This document shows, in pieces, positions 1 to 57,361 of a stretch of DNA of 64,000 nucleotides. A model generated the notes under the pieces. It was not told the origin of the DNA. It saw only the letters and a program-made list of their open reading frames with translations, and did no database searches. The DNA lies in IMG/VR virus record IMGVR_UViG_3300029319_000022. One strand, given 5' to 3'. Positions within the stretch are counted from its first letter, which is position 1; each line of letters begins with the position of its first letter. Both the position numbers and the translations under genes were made by a program. The stretch comes from an uncultured virus (IMG/VR IMGVR_UViG_3300029319_000022). Its lineage: Duplodnaviria > Heunggongvirae > Uroviricota > Caudoviricetes.

Positions 1-75
1 TGATATGGAGAGCTTGGATATACTGTCTACCCTTTTTAATTAATTAAATATAATTTTAATTCATTTTAAATAACT

Positions 76-201
76 ATGGACAATTTTTACCCTTGGGGCT
101 TTATTATTATGTTCTTCTCTCTACTTATACTCTCTATTACTAGGGGGGAGAAAACATCACATCAGGATGATGATATAGATGACTACTGGAGCGATGGTTA
201 G
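76..201 (+). CDS. small putative membrane peptide (41 aa, MDNFYPWGFIIMFFSLLILSIT...)
   Basis: ATG 76 to TAG 201 read by eye; one hydrophobic stretch; below the ORF-track cutoff. Confidence 0.4.
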   Translation: MDNFYPWGFIIMFFSLLILSITRGEKTSHQDDDIDDYWSDG

Positions 202-366
202 TGTAGTATATATATAACCCCCAATAAAAGAAAACAAATGACACGGATAGAGTCGGTTTTATATCTATTATTTTTTATTATTGCAGTTTATATATTGTAT
301 AGTTATGTGACATAATTGAAACAACAATATTCTTCAAGTCGATTACAAATAAGCGTAATAATAAAC

Positions 367-519
367 ATGGAAGAAGAAATGAATCCAAGAGTGAACCAGA
401 GAAAGCGTAATAAACAAGAGGCGAAACAATATAAAAAACTTTATGCCACTCCGTGGGATATTCCAATATCGATTCTGACACTCTTAATAATAGCACTATT
501 AGTTATCTGTTTCAAATGA
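367..519 (+). CDS. small protein with C-terminal transmembrane helix
   Basis: ORF track 316..519, ATG at 367; basic N-terminus followed by hydrophobic IPISILTLLIIALLVICFK. Confidence 0.5.
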   Translation: MEEEMNPRVNQRKRNKQEAKQYKKLYATPWDIPISILTLLIIALLVICFK

Positions 520-643
520 TCCCAGATCAAATAAGTGGGGCTAAATAAACACATACAAATAATACATATATACCCAGATCTAATATCTAATATCAAATAA
601 CTTAATAACTAATAAGCCCAGATCAAATAACCAGTATTAAATA

Positions 644-664
644 AAGGCCCGCCATGCGGGCCTT
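644..664. terminator. GC hairpin where + and - transcription converge
   Basis: AAGGCCCGC-CAT-GCGGGCCTT perfect stem; weak U tract on the minus strand. Confidence 0.55.
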
Positions 665-689
665 CGTTGTGTATATACATATAAGCTAT

Positions 690-768
690 CGTAAGTGGTT
701 GATTATCAAGGACTTACGCATAGAGGGGGGCCGCGCATGCGTAACTCGTTCATGCTGAACGAGTTACA
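690..768. repeat. 79-bp double-palindrome element, copy 1
   Basis: CGTAAGTGGTT-GATTATC-AAGGACTTACG + 21-bp linker CATAGAGGGGGGCCGCGCATG + CGTAACTCGTT-CATGCTG-AACGAGTTACA. Confidence 0.95.
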
Positions 769-894
769 GCACCAGTTAAGTGATCACAAAAGGTTAGAAA
801 GAATGGGGTAATGACTCCCCGAAAACAACCCGTCGCAGGATCTCTCTGCGCTCTACTCCTAACTGGTGCGTATTTGTTGCGTATAACAAAACTT

Positions 895-1074
895 TTATTT
901 TTTTGCTTTTGCCTGTTTATATTCTTTATTCATTTGTTCTTTGAATCCATATGTGCCGATGCCTTTCTTGCGAAGCCATGCTTCGCAAGCATCGCCTACG
1001 ACCTTAGCGAGATTAGTATAAACCTCTTTTTTTTCTTGGTCTTTTATATTTGGTTCGTGTGGTATGCTTGTCAT
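895..1074 (-). CDS. hypothetical protein (59 aa, MTSIPHEPNIKDQEKKEVY...)
   Basis: ATG-to-TAA ORF read by eye, co-oriented with its neighbours; just under the track cutoff. Confidence 0.55.
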   Translation of the reverse strand: MTSIPHEPNIKDQEKKEVYTNLAKVVGDACEAWLRKKGIGTYGFKEQMNKEYKQAKAKK

Positions 1075-1142
1075 CTTAGTGCTAAAATTAAAAGTGCGAT
1101 TGCTAAAACAAAGATTAAACTTATTTGGTGATCCATTTTTTT

Positions 1143-1415
1143 TTACATCGTCATCCCCTCGGATAACTTACCACGCCTATCCATATAAATCAACTCAATT
1201 GCTTTCTGATTCATCTCGTCACTCTCTGAGTAGTAACTTGGCATTTCCTCAAGAACCTCTGAGCCATCTATATTAGTTATAGGTTTATACATCTTTAACT
1301 GATGCGTCTTGACTGCGTGAGTAATCCCCTTGGAATTATCGTATCGCAAGTCTATAAGAACATTAGTCTTAGTTAGTAAAAAACGGATTTGATTTGTGTA
1401 GTTAACTTCTTTCAT
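1143..1415 (-). CDS. hypothetical protein
   Basis: ORF track; ATGA overlap with the upstream ORF. Confidence 0.65.
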   Translation of the reverse strand: MKEVNYTNQIRFLLTKTNVLIDLRYDNSKGITHAVKTHQLKMYKPITNIDGSEVLEEMPSYYSESDEMNQKAIELIYMDRRGKLSEGMTM

Positions 1416-1585
1416 TTTAAATGTGTTTGTTTACATGGTACTATATCATAAGACCAGTCATTGCCAAATTGTTTTCTTAGTAGATAGATTTTTTTTCTCA
1501 ACCGATCAGCTGTAAAAAAACCTTTTACATTGTTATGTTCTGGGCCTCCTATTATTTTTAGTTTATATACTATATCGTCTTTCAT
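1412..1585 (-). CDS. hypothetical protein (MKDDIVYK...)
   Basis: ORF track 1412..1624; likely start at ATG 1585, directly after the upstream stop. Confidence 0.6.
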   Translation of the reverse strand: MKDDIVYKLKIIGGPEHNNVKGFFTADRLRKKIYLLRKQFGNDWSYDIVPCKQTHLK

Positions 1586-1587
1586 AT

Positions 1588-1794
1588 TTAATTTTTTACT
1601 TTTAAGAATTGTGTTCCGTCCCACTCAAGACCGTGTTCGGTCTCAAGATAGTTTTCTATCACTAACGCATCATTGTCTATTTCATTACTGCCCTCGTTAT
1701 CCCCACCATTAGCTAGCTCTTTGGACGCTTTATTTAAATCCGTGTGATAATCCTTTAGCACATCGACTATATCTCTTTCTTCCCAACTTCTCAT
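1588..1794 (-). CDS. hypothetical acidic protein
   Basis: ORF track; ATGA overlap with the Gp88-like gene. Confidence 0.6.
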   Translation of the reverse strand: MRSWEERDIVDVLKDYHTDLNKASKELANGGDNEGSNEIDNDALVIENYLETEHGLEWDGTQFLKVKN

Positions 1795-2498
1795 TTGTTT
1801 TTTACTTTTACAACAAAGCCAGAGTTATCTTGCTTTGCTTTTCCTTTTGCTTCTAGTCCGACTATTTTACCATGAGGATCAGTAAAACGCAAGTCGTGAT
1901 CGTCGCCACTGATAACTTCCATGCCTTCCCAAGTTTTCGGAATCTCATCGAACACAACGGCAACATTACCACCTTTTTTAATTACTTCTTTTATAAACTC
2001 AATGTCTGTTGTTTCGTCTCTACTAAAAGTAAGATGATAATTGTGAGGCATTTCAGAGTTATATCCTAGACCGCGACCGAGGAAAGCTCTCATTCTTTGT
2101 TTGCTCTTTGTGTAGTCGTAGAACTGTTGTTTTGGAAACTCTTGCATGATGCCATATTTTTCCCAACGGATATCACTTGTTAAGTTTAAACGAAAGCAAA
2201 CATTCATTTCTTTACGTGTTGCAAACCTTATACCTGCTTGGATATCCTTTACCAACTGAAGCACAAACTCAAACTTATTATCAAAGAATTTATTTGTTTT
2301 GTTTATCCTAGCCTCTTGAACCATATTCATCATTCCCCGACCTGCCGTATTTAAACAAGCTGTTGCACATCCTGGGGATGCGTTCGGGCAAACATTACGC
2401 CCCGACAAAGTAGACGGTGCAAAGTGCAAGCCGTAAGTTATGAAACCTTTTTGGAATCCCTTTAAAATTTTTGAGTTGCTAAGTGTTAAGTATCTCAT
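1791..2498 (-). CDS. Gp88-like phage protein (Cys-cluster protein)
   Basis: N-terminal NSKILKG, CPNASPGCATACLNTAGRG, RLNLTSDIRWE, FYDYTK, YHLTFS and GDDHDLRF motifs typical of the GP88 family. Confidence 0.8.
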   Translation of the reverse strand: MRYLTLSNSKILKGFQKGFITYGLHFAPSTLSGRNVCPNASPGCATACLNTAGRGMMNMVQEARINKTNKFFDNKFEFVLQLVKDIQAGIRFATRKEMNVCFRLNLTSDIRWEKYGIMQEFPKQQFYDYTKSKQRMRAFLGRGLGYNSEMPHNYHLTFSRDETTDIEFIKEVIKKGGNVAVVFDEIPKTWEGMEVISGDDHDLRFTDPHGKIVGLEAKGKAKQDNSGFVVKVKNK

Positions 2499-2503
2499 AT
2501 CAA

Positions 2504-2725
2504 TTAAATGCTATTAAGCTGATAGACTGTGTTGTCTAACAATATTTCAAATTTAGCCACTTGTCTATCAGTATCTGAGTTTTCGCTTTTATATTTCTTG
2601 ATATACTGAACCGCACCATCATAAGTAAACCATCCATTAATTGATTGGTCGCCATTTTGATGTAACATAAAGACCTGAAAGTCTTTTTTATCTTTATCTA
2701 TATTTATTGGATAGTCTTCTATCAT
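2504..2725 (-). CDS. hypothetical protein
   Basis: ORF track; own promoter immediately upstream. Confidence 0.7.
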   Translation of the reverse strand: MIEDYPINIDKDKKDFQVFMLHQNGDQSINGWFTYDGAVQYIKKYKSENSDTDRQVAKFEILLDNTVYQLNSI

Positions 2726-2731
2726 GTGTTA

Positions 2732-2760
2732 AAAGTAAACTATGATATATTCCATGTCAA
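2732..2760 (-). promoter_or_regulatory. sigma70-type leaderless promoter
   Basis: TTGACA-17-TACTTT, 6 nt before ATG 2725. Confidence 0.7.
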
Positions 2761-2823
2761 ATAAAAAATCATTTAATATAATTAAAATTAATTTTAATTA
2801 TAGCTTGACATATAGTTTTGCTT

Positions 2824-2902
2824 CATAACTCGTTGAGTATCAACGAGTTACGCACTGCGGGGGGCCGCGCATGCGTAAGTCGTTCATACTGAACGACTTA
2901 CG
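2824..2902. repeat. 79-bp double-palindrome element, copy 2
   Basis: CATAACTCGTT-GAGTATC-AACGAGTTACG + CACTGCGGGGGGCCGCGCATG + CGTAAGTCGTT-CATACTG-AACGACTTACG. Confidence 0.95.
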
Positions 2903-2939
2903 TAAGTTATTACTCAGACCCCTGTCAAGTTAAAAACAC

Positions 2940-2972
2940 AAAAAAAACCCGCACCCCTTTCGGGATGCGGGC
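2940..2972 (-). terminator. intrinsic terminator of the DUF932 gene
   Basis: minus strand CCCGCATCCC-GAAA-GGGGTGCGGG followed by a T8 tract. Confidence 0.85.
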
Positions 2973-2994
2973 GTGGTTGGTAAGGCGGGGCTAG

Positions 2995-3819
2995 TTATGC
3001 GGGTAAAACGACCTCCTCAGCTTCTATGATCTCAGGTGTATGACCTGCAACAGAATCAAAAAGACTCTGCATTTTCATAGTACGCTCTGGGAGCTTGGAC
3101 AAATCACCGCCCTTGAGATTTTCAGTTACGGAGTTGTACAAATTCCAGAGAGTGTTGCCTCTGAACTCAGGATGACGAGGATCACGAAACTCTTTGACAG
3201 TCTTGTAAACATCACGCTCTGGAAGAGCTTTGATCTCGGCAAGATCCACAACAAGATTAGAAGCCCTCTCAGGAGAGATTTCAGAATCTTTGTAAGCCAT
3301 GATTCTCTCGCCCATGTCATGCCATGACGAAACGATGCGACCGATAGCCTTGGCAAGCATCCCATCAAGATCACGAAGAATGTTGACAGTGTGACGGCGA
3401 GCGAGCTTAACGTCAGACGAAAAGCACATATTGTCGCAAACCAACATAGAATTACCCATGCAAGCGGAAGCCGCTGTGGACTTGTCGCTAGAGTTACGCA
3501 AGCCGAAAACAAGCCTCCTATCATCGCCCTTGATATCATCACCAGTTAAAGCGAATCCACCAAAGTAACGCTGACCGCCACGGGCCAGAGCGTGTTCCTC
3601 TTCAGTGATTGCAAAACCTGCACGATCTAAAGCCTTGCGAGTTTTATCAACTAGCAAGCTGTGAGGGATAGGCGTATGACTATCCGTTTTTGGGGGAGTC
3701 TTAACCGCCCGAAGTTGATCATCTACAGAGAGAGTCTCAACGTTATGTGAAGTCCAAACCGATCCTGCACTTGGGCGTGTGATCGGCTCCAGTTTATTTT
3801 TTGCGAATATAAGTGACAT
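2995..3819 (-). CDS. DUF932/DUF945-family protein
   Basis: TPPKTDSHTPIPH, FGLRNSSDKS, VCDNMCF, RRHT and TLWNLYNSVTENLK motifs; start placed at ATG 3819 after the promoter. Confidence 0.8.
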   Translation of the reverse strand: MSLIFAKNKLEPITRPSAGSVWTSHNVETLSVDDQLRAVKTPPKTDSHTPIPHSLLVDKTRKALDRAGFAITEEEHALARGGQRYFGGFALTGDDIKGDDRRLVFGLRNSSDKSTAASACMGNSMLVCDNMCFSSDVKLARRHTVNILRDLDGMLAKAIGRIVSSWHDMGERIMAYKDSEISPERASNLVVDLAEIKALPERDVYKTVKEFRDPRHPEFRGNTLWNLYNSVTENLKGGDLSKLPERTMKMQSLFDSVAGHTPEIIEAEEVVLPA

Positions 3820-3828
3820 AATGAGGTA

Positions 3829-3857
3829 ACTATAACCGCAGAAAACAAAAAAGTAAA
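3829..3857 (-). promoter_or_regulatory. sigma70-type promoter with very short leader
   Basis: TTTACT-17-TATAGT, 9 nt before ATG 3819. Confidence 0.7.
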
Positions 3858-3955
3858 GAGAAAAAAACAAAAAAGTTTAGGTTAAATATTTGCTTGACAA
3901 ATATTTATTATATTATTACTTGACAAAGTTATCATGGCGTATGAGTAGGATCATT

Positions 3956-4034
3956 TGTAACTCGTTGAGTATCAACGAGTTACGCACCGCGGGGGGCCGC
4001 GCATGCGTAAGTCGTTCATACTGAACGACTTACG
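3956..4034. repeat. 79-bp double-palindrome element, copy 3
   Basis: differs from copy 2 at only 3 positions (first two bases and one linker base). Confidence 0.95.
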
Positions 4035-4050
4035 TAAGCACTTAACAGCA

Positions 4051-4415
4051 CAAAAAAAAACCGCCGACAGTTTCTGAAGAGCATAACAGCCCTCTTATTC
4101 CTGCCGACGGCTTTATTTTAAGAAACCGCCGATAGCTTCGAGTCATTAAGGTCTATTTAAAGACCGCTCTGTCACTATCGACGGCTCCCCTACTGGCGGG
4201 AGCGCTCCGTTGGGGCTTGCCTCCAGTATTTAGGTTTGGGATTGTTCTCCGTAGAGTTGGCGGTAAATCCCTTTATAACCATACCAATGTTTCATCGTCA
4301 CTTGCCTTGGAGTCGAAACCCAACAAGGGGGCGAGCTTAGGGAAACAGTTTGCACTGTGGCTCGTTCCTTTCGGAAGTCATTACCTTAACCTGTAAACTC
4401 GGTGACTATACCCTC
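4051..4415 (-). ncRNA. candidate structured non-coding RNA (chain of stem-loop domains ending in a terminator-like stem and U tract)
   Basis: no ORF of 60 aa or more; GC higher than flanks; many nested stems, including TTCC-GAAA-GGAA, CAGT-GCAA-ACTG, TACTGG..CCAGTA, GGGATT..AATCCC and two GCCGTCG..TCGGCGGT stems. Confidence 0.5.
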
Positions 4416-4634
4416 CTAGGATTCTTCTGCGTGTAACGCAAATTTTTCGTTTAATGTATTAGCGTGTTTACGTGTCCACTTTACATTATCCATAAAGTTA
4501 TCAAGCTTGTCATCTGCAACGTCAGCCATTCTGTCGGCTAGTGTTTGATGTACTACGCCCAAGGCATAGTTAAGCAAAGTTGCTTGGTCTTTATTTTTTA
4601 CTTCAATGCGAACTGATTCAGTTGTTTTTGCCAT
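4416..4634 (-). CDS. hypothetical protein
   Basis: ORF track. Confidence 0.7.
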   Translation of the reverse strand: MAKTTESVRIEVKNKDQATLLNYALGVVHQTLADRMADVADDKLDNFMDNVKWTRKHANTLNEKFALHAEES

Positions 4635-4706
4635 ATTATATATTTGTTGTTAAGTTAAAAAGATTTGTCGGCTTTAAGGCTATTCCAGCATCTAGGAACT
4701 GACCGA

Positions 4707-4871
4707 CTACCTTTCCGCGAAAATGTCATTATGGAGTAGCTCAACAGCTTCATCATCCATTTTCTCGTAAACGTACATTAACAAAAGGTCGATTATCTCA
4801 GCCTCATCCATCGAGTGGAATTCTCTTTCAGCTAACTCAAAGCGTTTTTGTTTAAGCTCGTCTGTATTCAT
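4707..4871 (-). CDS. hypothetical acidic protein (54 aa, MNTDELKQKRFELAERE...)
   Basis: ATG-to-TAG ORF read by eye. Confidence 0.6.
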   Translation of the reverse strand: MNTDELKQKRFELAEREFHSMDEAEIIDLLLMYVYEKMDDEAVELLHNDIFAER

Positions 4872-4949
4872 ATTATTAAATTATTTTTAAGGAGTGGATG
4901 ACGAGACTCACCCCCATGAACATCTCGCCATCCGTCCTTAACTCCAGTT

Positions 4950-5207
4950 TTATACTATGACATTGATGCTGTCAATATATAAATTTCTATATTTTTCCAC
5001 TCCAGAATCATCTACATCTGAGACCTTTGCAGTTATGAACTGCTCACTTGTTTCCCAGTGTCTCCCGACCCTATCAATGGATTCGATTTTAAAAGTTCTC
5101 ACTCCGTTATCAGTAACGGATGATTTGTTTTGTGTGTTTGTGTACCTGACAGTTTTACCTGCTAAGTATGACGCTAGTTGAGTTGGATTTAAGGATTGTA
5201 ATTTCAT
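4950..5207 (-). CDS. hypothetical protein (possible SH3-like beta fold)
   Basis: ORF track; own promoter. Confidence 0.7.
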   Translation of the reverse strand: MKLQSLNPTQLASYLAGKTVRYTNTQNKSSVTDNGVRTFKIESIDRVGRHWETSEQFITAKVSDVDDSGVEKYRNLYIDSINVIV

Positions 5208-5213
5208 GTCTCT

Positions 5214-5242
5214 AATCTACCACAGATTTAAAAGGGGTGCAA
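5214..5242 (-). promoter_or_regulatory. sigma70-type leaderless promoter
   Basis: TTGCAC-17-TAGATT with TG extension, 6 nt to ATG. Confidence 0.7.
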
Positions 5243-5258
5243 GTATTTTTTTGCTTTT

Positions 5259-5465
5259 TTATTTTTTTGTTAAGGGTTTCGCTTCAATGTCAGAGATATC
5301 AGTGCCGACATACCTAACATTAAACTCAAGTTGATCATTGAGTTCATCAGGATTATGAAGAAGATCTTTAGCAACGATTTCGCCATTTTCAACAAAGAGG
5401 CAGAAACCGCCGTCTACAGATGCACTATTTAAATGTGCCATTATTTCATCAATTCTATTGTTCAT
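5259..5465 (-). CDS. hypothetical protein
   Basis: ORF track; own promoter. Confidence 0.7.
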   Translation of the reverse strand: MNNRIDEIMAHLNSASVDGGFCLFVENGEIVAKDLLHNPDELNDQLEFNVRYVGTDISDIEAKPLTKK

Positions 5466-5471
5466 GATCGA

Positions 5472-5500
5472 ACTATAAACTATAAATAGACAAATAGCAA
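5472..5500 (-). promoter_or_regulatory. sigma70-type leaderless promoter
   Basis: TTGCTA-17-TATAGT, 6 nt to ATG. Confidence 0.7.
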
Positions 5501-5547
5501 ATATAAATTAATAAAAAAGAATAAAAATTCAAGTACGTATTAACTTA

Positions 5548-5626
5548 TGTAAGTCGTTGAGTATCAACGACTTACGCACCGCGGGCGGCCGCGCCCGCGT
5601 AACTCCTTCATTATGAGGGAGTTACG
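5548..5626. repeat. 79-bp double-palindrome element, copy 4
   Basis: TGTAAGTCGTT-GAGTATC-AACGACTTACG + CACCGCGGGCGGCCGCGCCCG + CGTAACTCCTT-CATTATG-AGGGAGTTACG. Confidence 0.95.
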
Positions 5627-5713
5627 TCAGGTTTTATGCGCTTACCTGACAGGCTATGAAAATGACCAGAGAGGAAAATCAAGTAAACCCCACCGACGCA
5701 ATACCTAACTCTA

Positions 5714-5986
5714 CTAAAAAAATCTTTTCTTTGCTACTAGCTCTTCAAGGTCTTCGAGCTTTTGAACTATCTCTTTTTTATTCCATTTAAATCGCATATC
5801 ATTACGCAAGAAGTGAAGCTCGAACTTTATATCTCCTAACATTCTTAAAAGATTACTTCTGTTTTGATTTTGGATTTTTTCTTCCCTGTCTATTATTGGA
5901 GCTAAGTTTTTTTCATTCATGTTTTTTATTTGCCAGTTTTTTCCTAAGTTAAGAATTGCTTCGTTTAGTTTTTCGAATTTAGTCAT
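5714..5986 (-). CDS. hypothetical coiled-coil protein
   Basis: ORF track. Confidence 0.65.
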   Translation of the reverse strand: MTKFEKLNEAILNLGKNWQIKNMNEKNLAPIIDREEKIQNQNRSNLLRMLGDIKFELHFLRNDMRFKWNKKEIVQKLEDLEELVAKKRFF

Positions 5987-5987
5987 G

Positions 5988-6230
5988 TTAGATTTTTGAA
6001 TTTAGTTTATCTACTGCCCAATCAAAGCACGTTAGTATGAAGCCCCACACTAACGGAAGCCCAAACATTATGAACATGACTGAGTCGCCATTCCAACCTC
6101 TTATACTATCTCTAAGAGAATCCCCAGAGCCGAATGAGATTGCGAGTATCATTATTAGGAGGGTAGCGATTAGACTTGCTAAGCAAGCGACCAAGTACCA
6201 GTGAATGAATTTATTTAATATTTTTTTCAT
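5988..6230 (-). CDS. small protein with two transmembrane helices
   Basis: ORF track; two hydrophobic segments. Confidence 0.7.
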   Translation of the reverse strand: MKKILNKFIHWYLVACLASLIATLLIMILAISFGSGDSLRDSIRGWNGDSVMFIMFGLPLVWGFILTCFDWAVDKLNSKI

Positions 6231-6235
6231 GATTA

Positions 6236-6267
6236 AGTATAGTTGACCTTGCCCCGAAGGGCAAGGT
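6236..6267 (-). promoter_or_regulatory. leaderless promoter whose -35 box and spacer form a TTCG-loop hairpin
   Basis: TTGCCC-17-TATACT; ACCTTGCCC-TTCG-GGGCAAGGT. Confidence 0.7.
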
Positions 6268-6280
6268 TTATTTTATAATT

Positions 6281-6508
6281 TTATCCGAAGATTATTTTAT
6301 CAAAGTCATCTTCTTTTAAAGCCTTGTCTAGACCTGTTTCAACTTTTTTGAAGTCTTGAGTTGCGAGATGCCATCTCGCCGCACCACCGACTTTAGAGCC
6401 GTCATGCCATTCTGACATAGCGGAAAGCTGACCTGATGCCATGATCATTTCAGTGCGGAGTTTATTGTGAGCGGTGATTAATGCGTTGATTTTTTCTTTA
6501 TCTGTCAT
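6281..6508 (-). CDS. hypothetical protein
   Basis: ORF track; own promoter. Confidence 0.7.
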   Translation of the reverse strand: MTDKEKINALITAHNKLRTEMIMASGQLSAMSEWHDGSKVGGAARWHLATQDFKKVETGLDKALKEDDFDKIIFG

Positions 6509-6514
6509 GATTTG

Positions 6515-6543
6515 AATATACTTTATTATTGGAGTTAATGCAA
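6515..6543 (-). promoter_or_regulatory. sigma70-type leaderless promoter
   Basis: TTGCAT-17-TATATT, 6 nt to ATG. Confidence 0.7.
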
Positions 6544-6562
6544 GAATTTATTTTATTTTTTT

Positions 6563-6769
6563 TTAGAACCAAGCTTTGAGGATCTCAGGCTCGATTACCT
6601 CAAAAACCACTTCATCCATTTCGTCAACTCTTACGTGTACGATTCTATTACCTTCGACCCAGTCGCAATCGTCTTCAATGTGAAACACAACCCCAGTGTC
6701 AACAAACTCCAGGTTATCGCCATGCTTAAAAGTTACTCTGTCATTGATTTCTATATCAGTTATTTTCAT
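6563..6769 (-). CDS. hypothetical acidic protein (MKITDIEINDRVTF...)
   Basis: ORF track; start moved to ATG 6769 because the upstream codons are the promoter. Confidence 0.7.
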   Translation of the reverse strand: MKITDIEINDRVTFKHGDNLEFVDTGVVFHIEDDCDWVEGNRIVHVRVDEMDEVVFEVIEPEILKAWF

Positions 6770-6775
6770 GTGGTA

Positions 6776-6804
6776 ACTATACCACACCTTGAAAGAAAAA
6801 GCAA
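6776..6804 (-). promoter_or_regulatory. sigma70-type leaderless promoter
   Basis: TTGCTT-17-TATAGT with TG extension. Confidence 0.75.
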
Positions 6805-6832
6805 GTAAAAAAAGTATTTTTTTTATTTTATT

Positions 6833-6911
6833 TGTAAGTCGTTCAGTGTGAACGACTTACGCATCGGCGGGGGCCGCGCCCGCGTAACTCCTTGATACTC
6901 AAGGAGTTACG
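6833..6911. repeat. 79-bp double-palindrome element, copy 5
   Basis: TGTAAGTCGTT-CAGTGTG-AACGACTTACG + CATCGGCGGGGGCCGCGCCCG + CGTAACTCCTT-GATACTC-AAGGAGTTACG. Confidence 0.95.
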
Positions 6912-6925
6912 TAAGCTTTTACTGG

Positions 6926-7165
6926 TCAATCCCAGCGGTCAAAGATGACCTTGTTGCCCTTGGTGAGCATTTTGCGGCCCATGATAGGCACACCCTGCTC
7001 ACCATACTCGCGGATGGATGGACGGACCTCCATGGAGGTGGCCCGCTTGGCAGAGCGGGACATGTACACGTAGGTGGTCTCCCCACACTCCCAGTTGCCC
7101 CCGCAAGACGGCGGATTTTGCATATACTCGGTGACAGTGAATTTATAGATATTGGAATTTCTCAT
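6926..7165 (-). CDS. hypothetical protein, GC-rich gene (MRNSNIYK...)
   Basis: ORF track; start moved to ATG 7165. Confidence 0.7.
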   Translation of the reverse strand: MRNSNIYKFTVTEYMQNPPSCGGNWECGETTYVYMSRSAKRATSMEVRPSIREYGEQGVPIMGRKMLTKGNKVIFDRWD

Positions 7166-7171
7166 GATGTA

Positions 7172-7200
7172 ACTATAACACAGATTAGAATTAAAAGCAA
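7172..7200 (-). promoter_or_regulatory. sigma70-type leaderless promoter
   Basis: TTGCTT-17-TATAGT with TG extension. Confidence 0.75.
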
Positions 7201-7221
7201 GAACTTTTTTGTGTTTTTTTC

Positions 7222-7449
7222 TCACCCCTCGGTGAGCGCGTCGAGGCGAAGATCAGGCTCATCCTGCTCTGCCCATTTCGCATCCATGTGAGCGCGAGCG
7301 TCGTCCATGCGACTGTCAAGCCACGCCTCGAACTCCTCGCGCTCCTGCGCCTCATTGAGAAGCTCGTTGATCGCGCGATTGTCCACGCCGAACTCGGTTC
7401 CTTCGTTAGTAAGATCTCTAATGTCTGAAGTAGTAAGTGAATTTTTCAT
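7222..7449 (-). CDS. hypothetical acidic protein, GC-rich gene (MKNSLTTSD...)
   Basis: ORF track; start moved to ATG 7449. Confidence 0.7.
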   Translation of the reverse strand: MKNSLTTSDIRDLTNEGTEFGVDNRAINELLNEAQEREEFEAWLDSRMDDARAHMDAKWAEQDEPDLRLDALTEG

Positions 7450-7455
7450 GCCCAG

Positions 7456-7484
7456 AGTATAACACAGATTAAAAAGATAGTCAA
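7456..7484 (-). promoter_or_regulatory. sigma70-type leaderless promoter
   Basis: TTGACT-17-TATACT with TG extension. Confidence 0.8.
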
Positions 7485-7584
7485 ACAATTTTGTTTATTT
7501 TTTTGTAGATCGCAGGTCGTGGGTTAAATAGTAAATAGATTAATAGTAAATAGTACTTGACACATAGCCTTGCGTAAGAACTTA

Positions 7585-7663
7585 CGTAAGTCGTTGAGTA
7601 TCAACGACTTACGCCGCCGCGGCGGGCGCTCGTGCGTAACTCGTTCAATATCAAAGAGTTACG
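7585..7663. repeat. 79-bp double-palindrome element, copy 6
   Basis: CGTAAGTCGTT-GAGTATC-AACGACTTACG + CCGCCGCGGCGGGCGCTCGTG + CGTAACTCGTT-CAATATC-AAAGAGTTACG. Confidence 0.95.
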
Positions 7664-7695
7664 ATAGTAGTTGATAACCGTGTTTTATATACTTT

Positions 7696-7774
7696 AGTAA
7701 CTCGTTAAGTATCAACGACTTACGCAAGAAGGGCGGCCCGCGCCGCGTAACTCGTTGGCTGTCAACGAGTTACG
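7696..7774. repeat. 79-bp double-palindrome element, copy 7
   Basis: AGTAACTCGTT-AAGTATC-AACGACTTACG + CAAGAAGGGCGGCCCGCGCCG + CGTAACTCGTT-GGCTGTC-AACGAGTTACG; only 32 bp from copy 6. Confidence 0.95.
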
Positions 7775-7783
7775 TAAGGTTAT

Positions 7784-7933
7784 TTATTTTTCTATCAGCT
7801 GACTCAATTCTCTCATTTTGTCAAGAATTATTTTTGATTTTTCTCGGCGACTTAACTGATCAGATTTTTCAACCCACTGGCAAAATTCTCCGATGACTCT
7901 GATTTTTTCTCTGGTGGCAAACTTATTTTTCAT
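7784..7933 (-). CDS. small helical protein (49 aa), paralog of 8581..8790
   Basis: MKNKFATREKIRVIGEFCQWVEKSDQLSRREKSKIILDKMRELSQLIEK read by eye; own promoter. Confidence 0.7.
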   Translation of the reverse strand: MKNKFATREKIRVIGEFCQWVEKSDQLSRREKSKIILDKMRELSQLIEK

Positions 7934-7938
7934 ATCTG

Positions 7939-7967
7939 AATTTAACACAGAATTTTATTTAACGCAA
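7939..7967 (-). promoter_or_regulatory. sigma70-type leaderless promoter
   Basis: TTGCGT-17-TAAATT with TG extension, 5 nt to ATG. Confidence 0.7.
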
Positions 7968-7976
7968 GTTTTTATT

Positions 7977-8201
7977 TTATTTTTTTTCAAACTCTCGCAG
8001 AAGTTTTTCTGCGTTAGCTCTGAAGTCTCCAGAGATCGCCACATCCAAAGCCAACCAGACGATGTTGCGAACTGTTCGCTTGTCATCGGTGGCAAGCTCT
8101 TTACAGATGAGATCTGTCAACAAGTCAGCATCCTCAATGTAACGAGGTGCAGATTTAAGGGCGAGGCAAGCGATGTCGTAAGTATTGATATTATTTTTCA
8201 T
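7977..8201 (-). CDS. hypothetical protein (MKNNINTYDIAC...)
   Basis: ORF track; start moved to ATG 8201. Confidence 0.7.
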   Translation of the reverse strand: MKNNINTYDIACLALKSAPRYIEDADLLTDLICKELATDDKRTVRNIVWLALDVAISGDFRANAEKLLREFEKK

Positions 8202-8206
8202 GCCTG

Positions 8207-8235
8207 AATATAACACAGGTGCAGAGAAAAAGCAA
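8207..8235 (-). promoter_or_regulatory. sigma70-type leaderless promoter
   Basis: TTGCTT-17-TATATT with TG extension. Confidence 0.75.
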
Positions 8236-8302
8236 GTAAAAAGTTTATTTTTTTTCGATTATTTTTTTGTATAATGCCCGATAACCGCCTTTTGACTACT
8301 TT

Positions 8303-8381
8303 AGTAAGTCGTTAAGCGTCAACGACTTACGCAGGACGGGCCGCCCGCGGTGCGTAACTCGTTGAGTGTCAACGACTTACG
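8303..8381. repeat. 79-bp double-palindrome element, copy 8
   Basis: AGTAAGTCGTT-AAGCGTC-AACGACTTACG + CAGGACGGGCCGCCCGCGGTG + CGTAACTCGTT-GAGTGTC-AACGACTTACG. Confidence 0.95.
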
Positions 8382-8412
8382 AAGGTTTTTTTAGCACACT
8401 CTCGCCGACCTG

Positions 8413-8571
8413 TCAAGTATTTTTTTTACTTTTTTTGTCAAGTATTTTTTTCCATTTTTTTTGCGCGCCGTCGGCGGTTCCTTCAGATCTTAGAAGAATC
8501 TTAAAAGTTTCCCAAGGTGGTTTAGGCGCTCTTAACGAGCGCCACATTTTCATTCGTTCGTTTGGTGTCAT
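8413..8571 (-). CDS. possible small basic protein (52 aa, MTPNERMKMWRSL...)
   Basis: ORF read by eye, 9 nt after the upstream stop; 3' half is low complexity. Confidence 0.35.
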   Translation of the reverse strand: MTPNERMKMWRSLRAPKPPWETFKILLRSEGTADGAQKKWKKILDKKSKKNT

Positions 8572-8580
8572 GTTAGAGAT

Positions 8581-8790
8581 TTATCTTTTAAGAATTTTTA
8601 CTAGTGACTTGATAGGCTTTGCCACAGCGTCTGCCTCAGCTTGAAGTGCTGACAGCTCTCGCATTTTCTTAGTGACGAAGTCAGCTTTTTCATTAGCTGA
8701 GAGATCATCTCTGCCCATTGCCCAATCACATAAATCTGCGATGGCTGACATTTCTGCGGTAAGTTTTAAAAGTTTATCAGTGTTTTTCAT
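8581..8790 (-). CDS. small helical protein, paralog of 7784..7933
   Basis: ORF track; own promoter. Confidence 0.7.
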   Translation of the reverse strand: MKNTDKLLKLTAEMSAIADLCDWAMGRDDLSANEKADFVTKKMRELSALQAEADAVAKPIKSLVKILKR

Positions 8791-8796
8791 GATTTA

Positions 8797-8825
8797 AGTT
8801 TACCACAGATTTTTATTTAACGCAA
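8797..8825 (-). promoter_or_regulatory. sigma70-type leaderless promoter
   Basis: TTGCGT-17-TAAACT with TG extension. Confidence 0.75.
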
Positions 8826-8829
8826 GTAT

Positions 8830-9012
8830 TTATTTTGTTTTTTTATAGAATTCTTGATTCATGAGTGCCTCGGCAATCTCATCGGCTAGCTCTTTAAAGT
8901 TTTTTGAAGTTGGACCAATTGGCAAAATGCCATGATCCATGAGACGGCTTTGGGCCTCTGTTAAACATTTGATGTAGTCGGTATCTGTTAAGTGCTTAGG
9001 TGCTTTTTTCAT
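8830..9012 (-). CDS. hypothetical protein
   Basis: ORF track; own promoter. Confidence 0.7.
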   Translation of the reverse strand: MKKAPKHLTDTDYIKCLTEAQSRLMDHGILPIGPTSKNFKELADEIAEALMNQEFYKKTK

Positions 9013-9018
9013 GATTTA

Positions 9019-9051
9019 AGTATACTCGATCTTGCGCCGAAGCGCAAGATC
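9019..9051 (-). promoter_or_regulatory. leaderless promoter whose -35 box and spacer form a TTCG-loop hairpin
   Basis: TTGCGC-17-TATACT; GATCTTGCGC-TTCG-GCGCAAGATC. Confidence 0.7.
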
Positions 9052-9065
9052 TTTTTAATGTTTTT

Positions 9066-9317
9066 TTACCAAGCTAACTCATGCGAGCTTCTCCTATCTG
9101 CATCTCGTCTAGCTTCATCTAGCGCGGCCCACTCTTCGGCCTCTTCGCGCTCCATCATTTCGATTACTTCACCTTCAGAAAACAGGTATCCGTCTTCGTC
9201 GATAAAGCTATCGCCATTTACTGGCTTCAGATTTTTATCCTCTGCGAACTGATATAATTCTTTCTCGAATTCTGATAACTCAAGACCTTCTAGTGAATCT
9301 ATTTTAATTTTTTCCAT
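9066..9317 (-). CDS. highly acidic small protein
   Basis: ORF track; very D/E-rich. Confidence 0.7.
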   Translation of the reverse strand: MEKIKIDSLEGLELSEFEKELYQFAEDKNLKPVNGDSFIDEDGYLFSEGEVIEMMEREEAEEWAALDEARRDADRRSSHELAW

Positions 9318-9322
9318 GATTA

Positions 9323-9351
9323 AGTTTACTCTACTTTTTATTTAAACGCAA
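9323..9351 (-). promoter_or_regulatory. sigma70-type leaderless promoter
   Basis: TTGCGT-17-TAAACT, 5 nt to ATG. Confidence 0.75.
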
Positions 9352-9367
9352 GATCTTTTTTGTTTTT

Positions 9368-9598
9368 TTATATGCTCAACTTGTTGAGCATAGGAGACCA
9401 ATCACGGCTGACCATGTCGGCTAAACTTTCGCTTATGTCATCGATGGAGTCGATGGCGATCTCCTGCTCGCCTCCGTCTTGATCCATACCCCACACAAAC
9501 CCATTTTCGAAGTCTGTATCTACCACGACAAACCACTCACCACGCGCGGTGAACTCAACTCCATTACCTAAACGATTGATTAATTCTTTATTTTTCAT
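9368..9598 (-). CDS. hypothetical acidic protein
   Basis: ORF track; own promoter. Confidence 0.7.
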   Translation of the reverse strand: MKNKELINRLGNGVEFTARGEWFVVVDTDFENGFVWGMDQDGGEQEIAIDSIDDISESLADMVSRDWSPMLNKLSI

Positions 9599-9604
9599 AC
9601 TGTA

Positions 9605-9633
9605 AGTATACCACAGAATCGCATAAAAGTAAA
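9605..9633 (-). promoter_or_regulatory. sigma70-type leaderless promoter
   Basis: TTTACT-17-TATACT with TG extension, 6 nt to ATG. Confidence 0.75.
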
Positions 9634-9830
9634 GCTTTTTTTACATTTTTTTTTATTTTTTTTTATTAATATTTTGCTTGACAAGTACCCTACCCCATTT
9701 CTAGAAAAAACTTGACAAGATATACGTAGCAAGTCGCGGGGGGTGTCCGATTTCAATTTCTAAATGACGTTCACCGCATGAATATTTTTCATGGTAGCGT
9801 AGACTGAGCAGAGTGTAAAACACTGTGCCC

Positions 9831-10097
9831 ATGCACAAAAACAAAAAACTAATTAAGGAAATTAGAATGCGCCGAAACAAAGTTCGGTTTGAGCGTTACT
9901 ATGTTGATGGAGTGCCAAAGTTTTTAATTTACGCGGAAGGGCCGCATTATCAAATATGGAAGCGGGTGAACGCAGATTACTATATCGCGAAGGAGAGTTT
10001 TTATAGATATAGATTTTTTGTGTGGTTTATTGATTTGTTTAATGATTTTTATCCTGTTACAAGACTTATATGTTTATTGATGAATAAATTGATATGA
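9831..10097 (+). CDS. hypothetical protein
   Basis: ORF track; GTGTAA at 9813. Confidence 0.5.
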   Translation: MHKNKKLIKEIRMRRNKVRFERYYVDGVPKFLIYAEGPHYQIWKRVNADYYIAKESFYRYRFFVWFIDLFNDFYPVTRLICLLMNKLI

Positions 10098-10181
10098 CCC
10101 CCCGTTTTTGTAAAAAAATATAAATCGGGGGCAATTTAATTTTTATTGTTTAAAAAAAATAATCGGCACGTATAATTTGGT

Positions 10182-10343
10182 ATGCCGCTTGATTTAATCA
10201 CAAAGTATGTCCCATTGGTAGCTGGGATTATGTATACATTTGTTGCGACTGCCTATTTTTTAAAAAAAGAATATGGTTGGGGTATAATCTGGATATCATA
10301 TGCTACTGCTAATTTTGGGCTTATAGTAGTTGGTAATGAATAA
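10182..10343 (+). CDS. small protein with two transmembrane helices (53 aa, MPLDLITKYVPLVAGIMY...)
   Basis: ORF read by eye; two hydrophobic segments. Confidence 0.6.
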   Translation: MPLDLITKYVPLVAGIMYTFVATAYFLKKEYGWGIIWISYATANFGLIVVGNE

Positions 10344-10361
10344 TAGGTGTAATAAACTGGG

Positions 10362-11207
10362 ATGAGTTTATTATATAGTGAAGTTCCTGTTTATGTGGGC
10401 GCGGCAAACGCTACAACTATAACAGAGAATACTGCTTATGTGCCAGCTTTGGATGCTAGTGTAGATTTTGGCGCACAATTAGTTGGTAAAAGGTTTTTGG
10501 GGCAGGATGTAACATCAACCGATCAATTTAAGACAGCTGGTCCTCGTGAGGCTTCTATTTCTATAAAAGCTATATTAGATCCATTTACTGATGCGGCATT
10601 TGCATTTGCAAAGTCTAGTAATCAGGATGCGTCTTTTCCTATAAGAATTGGAAACAATACATATCAGGATTGTTTCTTGAGTGATTTTAGTTTATCTGTT
10701 GATAATTTCGCGCCAGTTACAATTGATGCTAATTTTGTTTCTCTTTCGCCGCCTACTGGTGGTAATGTTTCTGGAGATGCAAGCCCTTATGCAGGTGGAA
10801 CTATACCATTTGATCCTGATGATATTGTGTATGGTTATACCTGTAGTTTGTCAAATGCTACTCAAGCTGTTGGAAATGTTCAGTATAGAGTAAGTTACAA
10901 AAAGACTTTCAATAGAACTCCTGTTTATACTTTGGGCGCGGCCAATGCTACTTCTATGTTACTTAATGGAGTTGAATCTGAGATGAGCATAGAATCGACT
11001 GGTTTAAATTCTTTGATTGATTTTAGTGGTGGGGCCATAAGTTCTGATGTGACTTTGGGATTAAATAATATAGATGGAGATGGATTATCCACAAACCTAC
11101 CTAATGTTGTCATGGTTAACGGTTCGAAAGTTGTTACCCAGAGTTACAGCATAGCAGGTAGTGATACTGTAAATACAAGAGCAACAATAAAACAAATAGA
11201 TTTATAA
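10362..11207 (+). CDS. virion structural protein, tail-tube-like (paralog of 35385..36200)
   Basis: S/T/G/N-rich beta composition; shared motifs (FLSDFSLSV..APV vs YLNNWSINC..APV; NRTPVYTLG vs NRKPYYSIG). Confidence 0.6.
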   Translation: MSLLYSEVPVYVGAANATTITENTAYVPALDASVDFGAQLVGKRFLGQDVTSTDQFKTAGPREASISIKAILDPFTDAAFAFAKSSNQDASFPIRIGNNTYQDCFLSDFSLSVDNFAPVTIDANFVSLSPPTGGNVSGDASPYAGGTIPFDPDDIVYGYTCSLSNATQAVGNVQYRVSYKKTFNRTPVYTLGAANATSMLLNGVESEMSIESTGLNSLIDFSGGAISSDVTLGLNNIDGDGLSTNLPNVVMVNGSKVVTQSYSIAGSDTVNTRATIKQIDL

Positions 11208-11692
11208 TGGATTTAGAATTAGATTTTAGCGACGAAATAAGGGCTAAGTGGAGTATGAAGCGCAAGCGTAAGATTGATTGCGACAACCCCAAAGGATTTA
11301 GTCAGAAGCAGTATTGTAAAAGACAAGAGCGAGGTGGAGCATACAAAACAAAAGCAGATGAAAAAAGAACCCCCGAAAAAAGAAAAGATGGCACTAAGAG
11401 GCCAAAGTCTGAACATTCTGATTTGTATACAGATGAAGACCCCAAAGGTACTATAAAAGGGCTTGGATTCAAAGATGCTGAGACTGCTAAAAAAAGTGTT
11501 GCTATTATTGAGAAAGCAAGAAGGCCACATAAACATAAAGTGCAAGCCACCATGGCTATGGAGCAAAGATCTAGGTTTGCAGCTAAAAATGCTAAAGATC
11601 CTGAGAAAAAGAAAAAACTCACTGCCGCGAATAAAATATATAAAGCTTATCTAGAAAAATTAAAGAAAAGGACTAAGGAGCGAAACAAATAG
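11207..11692 (+). CDS. basic modular phage protein (possible internal head protein)
   Basis: DCDNPKGFSQKQYC and HSDLYTDEDPKGTIKGLGFKD modules, recalled from aquatic phage hypothetical proteins. Confidence 0.6.
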   Translation: MDLELDFSDEIRAKWSMKRKRKIDCDNPKGFSQKQYCKRQERGGAYKTKADEKRTPEKRKDGTKRPKSEHSDLYTDEDPKGTIKGLGFKDAETAKKSVAIIEKARRPHKHKVQATMAMEQRSRFAAKNAKDPEKKKKLTAANKIYKAYLEKLKKRTKERNK

Positions 11693-11707
11693 GTGTAAAT
11701 ATAATAA

Positions 11708-12427
11708 ATGCCCCGAAAAAAATCGAGTCAATCTTCACCATTTGATTTTAGCTCTCAAATACACTCTATAAACTTCAAGCAAAGGGAGTTTAACTTTTCC
11801 AACAAACAGCAGTTATTGCTAGAGGCAGTCTTAGATCCTGAGATGAAAATTATTTTTGTTTCAGGGCCAGCGGGATCTAGTAAGACTTACATGTCAGTTT
11901 ATGGCTGTTTACAGATAATGGCTAAAGATTTTAGTAAAGATCTAATATACATAAGAAGTATTGCTGAAAGTGCTGACAAAGGATTAGGCAGTTTGCCTGG
12001 AGATATATCAGATAAGTTCAATCCGTTTTTGATGCCGCTTTACGATAAGTTGGATGAAATGGTACATGAAGGCGATACAGCCTACATGAAAAAAATAGAA
12101 CGCATATCGGCAGTGCCAATTAACTTTTTAAGAGGAGCTAACTGGAACAATAAGCTCATTGTGGCAGATGAGGCTCAAAACTTTACATTTAAAGAATTAA
12201 CTACTCTGATTACTAGAATAGGTGAGAATACAAAATTAATTATATGCGGCGATTTCATGCAGAGCGACATAAACGGCAGAAGCGGGTTCAAAGAAATGTT
12301 TGATCTGTTTAATTGTGAAGAATCTAAAGAGCAAGGTATAACTTCATTTAAGTTCAACAACAGAGATATAGTTAGAAGTAAAATTTTAAAATATATTGTA
12401 TCTAAGATAGAAAAACACAAAAAATAA
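11708..12427 (+). CDS. phoH: PhoH-family ATPase
   Basis: GPAGSSKT Walker A, LGSLPGD, FLRG, DEAQN, TRIGE, GDFMQSD, DIVRS. Confidence 0.95.
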   Translation: MPRKKSSQSSPFDFSSQIHSINFKQREFNFSNKQQLLLEAVLDPEMKIIFVSGPAGSSKTYMSVYGCLQIMAKDFSKDLIYIRSIAESADKGLGSLPGDISDKFNPFLMPLYDKLDEMVHEGDTAYMKKIERISAVPINFLRGANWNNKLIVADEAQNFTFKELTTLITRIGENTKLIICGDFMQSDINGRSGFKEMFDLFNCEESKEQGITSFKFNNRDIVRSKILKYIVSKIEKHKK

Positions 12428-45278: not shown

Positions 45279-45297
45279 GATATAATCATGCAATAGC

Positions 45298-48609: not shown

Positions 48610-48613
48610 TAAA

Positions 48614-50572: not shown

Positions 50573-50573
50573 T

Positions 50574-53319: not shown

Positions 53320-53324
53320 ATTTT

Positions 53325-57355: not shown

Positions 57356-57361
57356 AAAAAA

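Follow-up and report, generated by a model that had tools for sequence, protein, structure and literature searches.

A paired palindromic element between the early genes of a clade of uncultured aquatic phages: conserved letters, exchange between copies and a possible boundary function

What role might be played by a repeat that recurs in the spaces between the early genes of a bacterial virus and is built from two copies of one palindrome? The question is raised by a 64,000-nucleotide stretch of DNA, referred to here as the window, from the IMG/VR virus record IMGVR_UViG_3300029319_000022. The window encodes a terminase large subunit (TerL), a portal protein, a tape measure protein of 2025 amino acids (aa), a ribonucleotide reductase, PhoH, a DnaB-like helicase and a primase, and is part of the large, siphovirus-type genome of an uncultured marine phage. 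Eight copies of a 79-bp element, each consisting of two 29-bp palindromes on either side of a GC-rich linker of 21 bp, lie between its early genes. A first-pass annotation had noted the resemblance of these palindromes to recombinase sites and had suggested an integron-like array of exchangeable gene cassettes, with protein-binding sites as the alternative. Based on sequence comparisons with related phages we favor a form of the alternative, at a probability of roughly 0.4: the element might be a protein-bound boundary or operator module of two-fold symmetry that separates early transcription units.

The paired palindromes and their distribution

A search of the window with the pattern CGTAAsTCGTT-N7-AACGAsTTACG, at up to 3 mismatches, returned 16 palindromes in a single register, that is, as 8 pairs in which the second palindrome always begins 50 bases after the first; the same pattern had no match in any of 100 dinucleotide-preserving shuffles of the window. 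These are the eight units of 29, 21 and 29 bp that had been described before (Table 1), and a repeat finder recovers the same eight copies. All 30 matches to a 12-base half-site fall inside the 16 palindromes, so the half-site never stands alone in the window. It was also confirmed for the full 64 kb that every copy is intergenic and that none lies outside positions 690-8381, the neighbors being open reading frames (ORFs) of the minus strand. Two other details required amendment. The division of each palindrome into 11-bp arms and a 7-bp core gives way to 13-bp arms (CGTAAsTCGTTGA) around a 3-bp center in most of the window copies and in the relatives, and the length that was thought never to change is indeed 79 bp throughout the window genome but ranges from 63 to 89 bp in related phages. 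A single hairpin spanning all 79 nucleotides (nt) was considered and rejected; on reading of the unique pairs, the centers of paired palindromes were generally not reverse complements of each other.

The elements are set among about 26 small minus-strand ORFs (positions 800-9900), only two of which match known families, namely GP88 (1791-2498) and DUF932 (2995-3870), and successive elements delimit blocks of 6, 1, 4, 4, 2, 0 and 2 ORFs. Most of these early ORFs have a promoter of their own, composed of an A-rich tract, a TTGCTT-like -35 and a TGn-TATAGT-like -10, and the early mRNAs are probably leaderless, since the ATG is placed only 5-9 nt past the -10. Followed in the order of the gene strand, an element comes 9-126 nt after the last stop codon, or after an intrinsic terminator (the copies at 2824 and 3956), and 28-107 nt ahead of the next -35. 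The same succession of gene, terminator, box, element, box, promoter and gene is seen at the DUF932 locus of a relative with a higher G+C content. At the junction between the leftward and rightward gene blocks (9678-9745 of the window) the boxes are kept and only an arm-like remnant and a poly-G run are left of the element, whereas the same junction in two related loci, L025 (60-210) and L060 (2100-2260), has an intact element behind two TTGACA boxes.

When IMG/VR was scanned for exact matches to a 25-base core, the element appeared in at least 187 stretches, and those listed were reduced to 178 loci in 78 sequence-overlap groups. The listed loci contain 133 unique paired units, which measure 79 bp in 66 cases, 87 bp in 27 and 80 bp in 12. 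Pairing is the rule, since 122 of the 146 palindromes that appeared to be single have a degenerate partner 34-62 bases away, with background best scores far worse. Searches of the carriers by tblastn with the window ORFs yielded TerL-like matches at about 54-86% identity, PhoH, a sigma-like protein and a 351-aa protein, together with DUF932 in 21 groups and GP88 in 12. Judged by these matches, the carriers are members of one phage family, and the element is a trait of the whole clade. Of 80 TerL-related loci, the 15 that include 6.6 kb or more of the sequence upstream of TerL all have palindromes there, and the shorter ones have none; a phylogenetic profile for a binding protein is impossible because every TerL relative that extends far enough carries the element. 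The motif is missing from the nearest record (G001), a 31.7-kb fragment that begins only about 4.6 kb upstream of TerL and so does not include the early region. In whole records the sites are gathered in limited intervals: nine within 25.6-32.4 kb of a 109-kb record, 18 within 64.2-73.8 kb of a complete 134-kb record and, in a complete 148-kb record, 13 in two clusters of 3 kb.

A 111-bp query against the cultured-phage collection returned chance-level matches only, at E up to 10, and no element-bearing record; the early region had no match in the phage collection by megablast or blastn, and tblastn with TerL against cultured phages found relatives at less than 30% identity only, none of them close. 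Metagenomic DNA contigs of 11 studies, from seawater, marine, estuary and biofilter samples, contain the region or at least half of it, and no RNA run containing the phage was listed. In Rfam, at E up to 1, positions 1-12000 of the window gave no match on the elements and a single chance-level match elsewhere (6213-6306), and full-text literature searches on intergenic palindromic repeats in phage early regions and on DUF932 returned no description of the element.

Letters, pairing and flanking boxes

Among 377 unique palindromes, positions 6 and 24 are the sole freely variable arm positions, and they vary independently of each other (CC 100, CG 96, GC 92 and GG 74); five arm positions are invariant, a figure that is inflated by the search pattern. 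When 73 aligned 79-bp units were folded as two hairpins, 86.9% of the cells were paired, compared with 85.8% after partners had been shuffled among sequences, so that nearly all of the pairing is due to column conservation. The bases at 6 and 24 fail to pair in 33 of the 73 rows, in both helices alike, and the covariation score is 0.112 against 0.097 in shuffles, an excess of a kind that relatedness alone can give. Sense-strand mismatches in 99 units oriented by the homology of flanking genes were 146 of the G.U type and 139 of the A.C type, and a cruder orientation by ORFs gave 124 and 117. The arms are nearly as similar between lineages (identity 0.85) as within them (0.86), while linker identity is 0.66 within lineages and 0.49 between them. 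When the window is compared with a relative whose TerL is 97% identical, orthologous units differ in the linker only, both palindromes and 20 bases of each flank being the same. As read from these alignments, the letters of the half-site, rather than their complementarity, are under selection. The four tests agree that the letters are conserved and the pairing is not, which argues for recognition of the duplex by a symmetric protein. Protein binding, as proposed in the first-pass annotation, fits this conservation pattern best.

One competing account places the function of the element in RNA, where the succession of arm, GC and arm hairpins would attenuate or terminate read-through or protect the 3' ends of mRNAs. 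Copies lie directly past stop codons, as such an account would predict, and the linker, with a mean of 80% G+C where the genome has about 35%, often reads as a G-run followed by a C-run and folds better than its shuffled versions (mean z -1.17, with 29% of linkers at z below -2). The promoter-early stem-loop (PeSL) cassettes of the T4-type phages RB49 and phi1 have poly-G/poly-C stem-loops, for which a reporter assay showed termination of transcription (Arbiol et al. 2010, PMC2839356). The alignments speak against a function of this kind, in that pairing is accounted for by column conservation, the one freely varying pair is open in about 45% of the copies and G.U mismatches are not in excess over A.C on the sense strand; an element conserved for structure only would be expected to drift with compensatory changes, rather than to keep arms that are equally similar between and within lineages. 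A scan for intrinsic terminators listed no linker; its weak candidates included three outer palindromes, read on the strand that does not carry the genes. No consistent T-run after the hairpins was found on reading the flanks, in which the elements are unlike rho-independent terminators, and canonical terminators already stand upstream of two copies. In addition, the linker of element 8, read as its reverse complement, starts like that of element 4 (by eye), and the unit appears, again by eye, to sit in either orientation. We consider an RNA-level role unlikely, if not greatly so.

The element might also persist without serving the phage, as a selfish, non-autonomous palindromic repeat of the type of miniature inverted-repeat transposable elements or repetitive extragenic palindromic (REP) sequences that spreads through and survives in the intergenic spaces of a plastic region. 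It is strictly intergenic, seems by eye to occur in both orientations, is found in tandem, differs in copy number between close relatives, has linkers that are more alike within than between lineages, and has seemingly decayed at one site in the window that is intact in relatives. Against this, no Y1 HUH or other transposase was found in the complete relatives; no target-site duplication was seen in the flanks, which extend the inverted symmetry instead; the arms retain an identity of 0.85 in spite of a TerL-like divergence that spans the range given above; and the element is absent from all the other intergenic spaces of these genomes. Such a selfish origin seems markedly improbable.

The flanks of the elements carry a linked motif. 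In 262 flanks, exact TTGACA hexamers after A/T tracts point inward in 109 instances and outward in 25, with peaks at 20-22 and 29-32 nt from the element edge. In oriented units, 55 boxes on the downstream side point inward and 10 outward, the corresponding upstream numbers being 24 and 5; additional minor classes are found near 38-39 and 49. Successive distances are about 10 bases apart, which would place the boxes on one fixed face of the helix, and their geometry suggests that something is bound at the element. In the flanks of L056, L103 and L072-L080 a CTAACAG motif and its complement are repeated between the TTGACA boxes and the element, a feature that is specific to these lineages.

Promoter-like blocks can be read in the arm as well (GTAAC as a -35-like and CGA as a -10-like block), and the elements could in principle be bidirectional promoters for the phage's own sigma factor, which is of the extracytoplasmic function (ECF) type (Table 1). 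The gene of this factor lies beside the early region, the protein is conserved in 10 sequence groups, the arm resembles ECF promoter blocks, and a conserved sigma factor would account for a conserved motif. The spacing of the blocks, however, is 14 nt, shorter than is usual for ECF promoters; the half-site never occurs singly, and the elements never stand ahead of structural or replication genes; and perfect two-fold symmetry is not a property of promoters. Taken together, these points make a sigma-dependent role very improbable.

In the mechanism that we favor, the 79-bp unit would be a recognition module on double-stranded DNA, with four 13-bp half-sites arranged as two 29-bp palindromes and a GC-rich spacer between them that tends to form a stem-loop. 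The units lie at the seams of the early region, past the last stop codon or terminator of one transcription unit and ahead of the promoter region of the next. Each palindrome would bind a dimer of a sequence-specific protein that is conserved throughout the clade and is probably encoded by the phage, and the bound module would act as a boundary or operator that blocks or shuts off transcription entering from either side and insulates the very strongly promoted early units from each other. The dispersed copies additionally recombine with one another through ordinary homologous recombination. A bolder version of this mechanism, which we regard as doubtful, is that the elements and a clade-wide phage protein make up a dedicated boundary system, in which the four half-sites would be occupied by a tetramer-like complex, in phase with the inward CTTGACA/A-tract boxes at steps of roughly 10 bp, and the host RNA polymerase would be trapped or blocked from both sides. 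If this were true, the host-takeover region would be split into separately gated loops by a bacterial-virus counterpart of the insulator, which has not been described for any phage.

A number of observations weigh against the boundary or operator interpretation. Some of them concern pairing: positions 6 and 24 are complementary in 14 of the 16 window palindromes, double changes in the 377 palindromes exceed expectation at C9-G21 (10 against 3.1) and at 12/18 (6 against 2.4), and the observed covariation score was reached in 1 of 500 shuffles, so that some constraint on pairing may exist in the lineage of the window. The L056/L167 lineage has fixed an arm variant that is G.U-compatible on the sense strand (50 G.U against 27 A.C), which, like the complementarity at 6 and 24 in the window, would agree with an RNA-level role. 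Others concern transcription: the distance between element and promoter varies, unlike that of a classical operator, and the CTTGACA boxes are not canonical promoters, a -10 (A2, T6) being placed 16-18 nt from them in 0 of 21 and 3 of 41 boxes of the two distance classes, against 60 of 786 control positions. Finally, Pfam gave no helix-turn-helix (HTH) or other DNA-binding match among the early ORFs, no HU/IHF gene was found in four related records, and the best conserved of the small early proteins might not be a classical DNA binder. This 85-aa protein (ORF 4950-5207, minus strand), of which there are 18 sequence variants down to 25% identity, has an AlphaFold model with a predicted local distance difference test score (pLDDT) of 89.9; its structural matches are weak (best E 0.016, TM 0.44) and are to the WYL/Sm-like domains of BrxR, CapW and DriD, which hint at an Sm/WYL-like barrel. 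It could be a decoy of the sensor domains of such defense regulators.

Other searches for a binding protein had similar outcomes. No DNA binder was identified with Pfam, PHROGs or NCBIfam among the early and conserved ORFs, the DUF932 and GP88 proteins had no match in PDB sequence searches, and an Atlas search with the conserved 351-aa protein returned nothing but virus-only hypotheticals. The latter protein, which is encoded in a module beside the early region, has a weak match to a LuxR-type HTH (E 0.0012); neither it nor the sigma factor, the zinc-ribbon protein or the ERCC4 nuclease (Table 1) could be tied to the element. No lysogeny genes appear in the window or in the complete relatives.

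That the searches turned up no phage-encoded binder would agree with a protein supplied by the bacterium, and the elements might be recognized by an architectural protein or an enzyme of the host, for example an IHF-like bender or DNA gyrase, that manages supercoiling and the shape of the DNA at strong early promoters, as bacterial interspersed mosaic elements (BIMEs) are reported to do in enterobacteria. BIMEs similarly consist of two inverted palindromic units and a linker, and the conservation of the phage element across visibly different base compositions (about 35% G+C in the window, and a GC-richer relative) would fit a universal host factor. The inner part of the half-site fits the Escherichia coli IHF consensus only when the center ends in W-A, which is the commonest state but holds for less than half of the palindromes (A at position 16 in 151 of 377). 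The conserved positions of the half-site far exceed the IHF consensus, however, and many centers do not fit it; confinement to at most 10 kb of a 110-150-kb genome would be odd for a general site; and a scan of 185,579 genomes (596 Gb) produced no bacterial array or regulon of the full site among the matches listed. A host architectural function is, for these reasons, quite unlikely.

The genome scan found at least 120 matching stretches, mostly single hairpins with unrelated centers and flanks from many phyla. Those listed amount to scattered single hairpins and small mis-binned phage contigs, and full double elements occur among them solely on small contigs of metagenome-assembled genomes with inconsistent taxonomy. 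The genes beside the matches are heterogeneous; about 15 matches, by our own count, lie beside the 3' ends of tRNA genes, and several tyrosine integrases are found among the neighboring ORFs. Since about 35 random matches are expected in 596 Gb (our arithmetic), and more among natural hairpins, we rejected the matches as indicators of a host, treated them as background and inferred no host from them. In L192, L211, L214, L218, L225, L257, L273, L278, L281 and other loci from bacterial genomes, single hairpins with the arm core stand a few bases past the 3' ends of tRNA genes, in many cases with a tyrosine integrase gene next to them and in some with a T-run after them. These hairpins probably serve as terminators where integrated elements end, and match the pattern by chance.

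Exchange between copies and neighboring features

The models PF00589, PF00239 and PF01797 (tyrosine recombinases, serine recombinases and Y1 HUH proteins) have no match in any of four related records (G001-G004, including two complete ones with 13 and 18 palindromes); among 14 genomes that served as positive controls the same models were detected in 14, 12 and 6, respectively. Recombinase families likewise had no match among those window ORFs that were scanned. The recombinase or HUH gene that, according to the first-pass annotation, might accompany the element elsewhere in the genome was thus not found in G001-G004 with these models.

Cassette maps place the elements at the same positions around the DUF932 and GP88 units across lineages, in conserved order, and single genes (5988-6230 and 5259-5465) occupy different blocks in different relatives. 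A detailed comparison of breakpoints was made for one close pair, the window and L300 (97% TerL identity), which differ by five rearrangements; four of the five breakpoints are at promoter repeats and one is inside elements, and the expected switching of gene content at the boundaries of the elements is not what is seen. L300 has lost 6243-7215 and 7988-8191, each with promoter repeats at its bounds, and carries a replacement of 8577-9342 that ends at a promoter repeat, a gene like the one at 6563 having moved beside 9342. The tandem pair of elements 6 and 7 is represented in L300 by one hybrid copy with its exchange point in or near the linker, and because the L300 copy of element 8 has a linker that resembles that of element 7 in the window, linkers must also have been exchanged between copies. 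Junctions between copies do exist, and they have the form of homologous exchange and not of site-specific products. Contigs of four Logan runs (85% likeness) contain joints between copies and between promoter repeats, one of which (6771 to 9342) agrees with L300; since the contigs are short and repeats can cause such joints, we use them as weak agreement only. Based on these sequence comparisons, gene shuffling in the region runs mainly via the repeated promoters, as in the shuffling mediated by PeSLs, and the 79-bp units recombine only by ordinary homologous exchange, as any dispersed repeat would.

An integron-like system, in which the elements would be the sites of site-specific recombination between cassettes, could draw on the inverted arms around a variable center, on the way in which the elements punctuate an array of small accessory genes, on the exchange between copies and on the short contigs that join parts of different copies. 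It is not supported, because the complete relatives have no recombinase of the families sought and the breakpoints are mostly at promoters. Moreover, the center measures 3 bp, the sole breakpoint inside elements is in or near the linker, as homologous exchange predicts, and the DUF932 and GP88 units are syntenic across lineages together with their flanking elements. We rate this reading as extremely improbable.

The coordinates of the elements, of the repeated promoters and of the clade-conserved proteins mentioned above are collected in Table 1.

Table 1. Elements, promoters and clade-conserved genes located in the window
Feature	Position	Strand	Remarks
Element 1	690..768		Palindromes 690-718 and 740-768, GC linker 719-739; most degenerate copy and last along early transcription; terminator-like hairpin 644-664 comes next
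Element 2	2824..2902		After intrinsic terminator of the DUF932 gene (2947-2972, minus strand); inward TTGACA boxes at 2805-2810 (+) and 2928-2923 (-)
Element 3	3956..4034		Upstream of promoter of the DUF932 gene; plus-strand TTGACA boxes (3894, 3920) face inward
Element 4	5548..5626		Second palindrome altered on both arms (TCCTT / AGGGA)
Element 5	6833..6911		14 nt past stop of ORF 6926-7225; 28 nt ahead of next UP/-35; lacking in L300 together with three ORFs
Element 6	7585..7663		First of tandem pair; plus-strand TTGACA box 7557-7562 faces inward; preceding sequence makes a small extra palindrome with its first bases
Element 7	7696..7774		Second of tandem pair; 9 nt past stop of ORF 7784-7948
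Element 8	8303..8381		Minus-strand TTGACA boxes (8416-8411, 8441-8436) face inward
Possible decayed remnant	9712..9745	+	TTGACA box, arm-like stretch and poly-G run; read by eye
Repeated gene promoter	6498-9653, also 5202-5270	-	Nine or more copies; repeat finder and reading
PeSL-like promoters	6233-6290 and 9016-9073		GC hairpin of the type CCTTGCCC-loop-GGGCAAGG, overlying -35/spacer of gene promoter; the two are 76% alike
Zinc-ribbon protein	12563-12913		Clade-conserved
ECF-like sigma factor	12837-13553		TIGR02937, E 3e-8; clade-conserved, 10 sequence groups
C2H2 zinc-finger and ERCC4/XPF-type nuclease	14579-15583		Directly upstream of large terminase; clade-conserved

Some other features of the window may be recorded here. 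Between element 3 and ORF 4416-4634 there are about 370 nt without a convincing ORF (4040-4415, minus strand), which end in two tandem terminator-like hairpins with several G.U pairs in their stems on the minus strand; this segment had no match in Rfam at E up to 1 and could be a small non-coding RNA. Positions 1-690, past the last element, are AT-rich and non-coding and contain a strong hairpin (644-664) as well as short direct repeats at 515-549 and 611-645; the early region may end here, or the stretch may be an origin or terminus. Sugar-nucleotide and glycosyltransferase genes form a long run at 44298-59450 (a GDP-mannose dehydratase-like protein, epimerases, a cytidylyltransferase, an FkbM methyltransferase and several glycosyltransferases) and suggest that a surface glycan or the phage DNA is modified. 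A tRNA scan found none.

Relation to known systems

Of the systems already described, the element is closest in kind to the PeSL cassette of T4-type phages, and it is also near to the dispersed operator arrays of phages, with a design that differs from both. PeSLs (Arbiol et al. 2010, PMC2839356) resemble the element in being short repeated intergenic modules that are confined to a plastic region of small accessory early genes, with a stem-loop of a G-run and a C-run, sigma-70-type -35 boxes and AT-rich tracts nearby, and with copies that recombine, so that genes are gained and lost at repeated regulatory sequences. In the window the module is likewise repeated between some 26 small ORFs with almost no family matches, in a region where gene content is plastic between relatives, and the hybrid copy that replaces the tandem pair and the swapped linker are examples of recombination between copies. 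The two differ in that the GC stem-loop of the element lies between two 29-bp palindromes whose letters, and not whose pairing, are constant throughout the clade; in that the element is two-fold symmetric and, by eye, found in both orientations; and in that the breakpoints of gene shuffling are mostly at separate gene promoters. A strong sigma-70-type promoter with an AT-rich upstream tract belongs to the PeSL repeat; the flanks of many copies of the element have inward CTTGACA boxes and A/T tracts, without a canonical -10, and the gene promoters are a repeat of their own.

The stoperators of cluster A mycobacteriophages and the conserved inverted repeats of phiC31 are reportedly dispersed repressor sites that lie between co-oriented early genes and stop or repress transcription. 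The element shares with such arrays the many copies in short intergenic spaces of co-oriented early genes. Stoperators are said to be short and asymmetric and to be bound by a phage-encoded repressor, whereas the element has four half-sites and a GC spacer, and the search for a repressor was empty.

The REPs and BIMEs of enterobacterial chromosomes are extragenic, consist of two inverted palindromic units with a short linker, lie at the ends of transcription units and have been proposed to bind architectural proteins. The paired inverted palindromes, the linker, the extragenic location and the position at the ends of transcription units are common to them and to the element. The element differs in being phage-borne, in the unrelated sequence of its arms and in having no Y1 transposase (RAYT) in four related records; the chromosomal dispersal of REPs likewise has no parallel in a host-genome array among the bacterial matches listed.

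With integron attC sites and the core sites of tyrosine recombinases the element shares inverted arms, a variable center and a location between small cassettes. It differs from them in that no recombinase was found, in its center of 3 bp instead of 6-8 bp and in the conservation of sequence rather than of fold. Arms around a variable core did not, in this instance, mean a recombinase site, which may serve as a caution for similar annotations.

Repeated regulatory cassettes are already known to organize and reshuffle the accessory early genes of T4-type phages. The element described here adds to them an abundant module of a different design, a symmetric unit of four half-sites whose letters stay fixed throughout a large clade of uncultured aquatic siphoviruses, with a spacer that evolves rapidly. 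If a cognate protein exists, the pair would constitute a compact and portable transcription boundary and might provide a handle on how lytic phages switch off their host-takeover genes.

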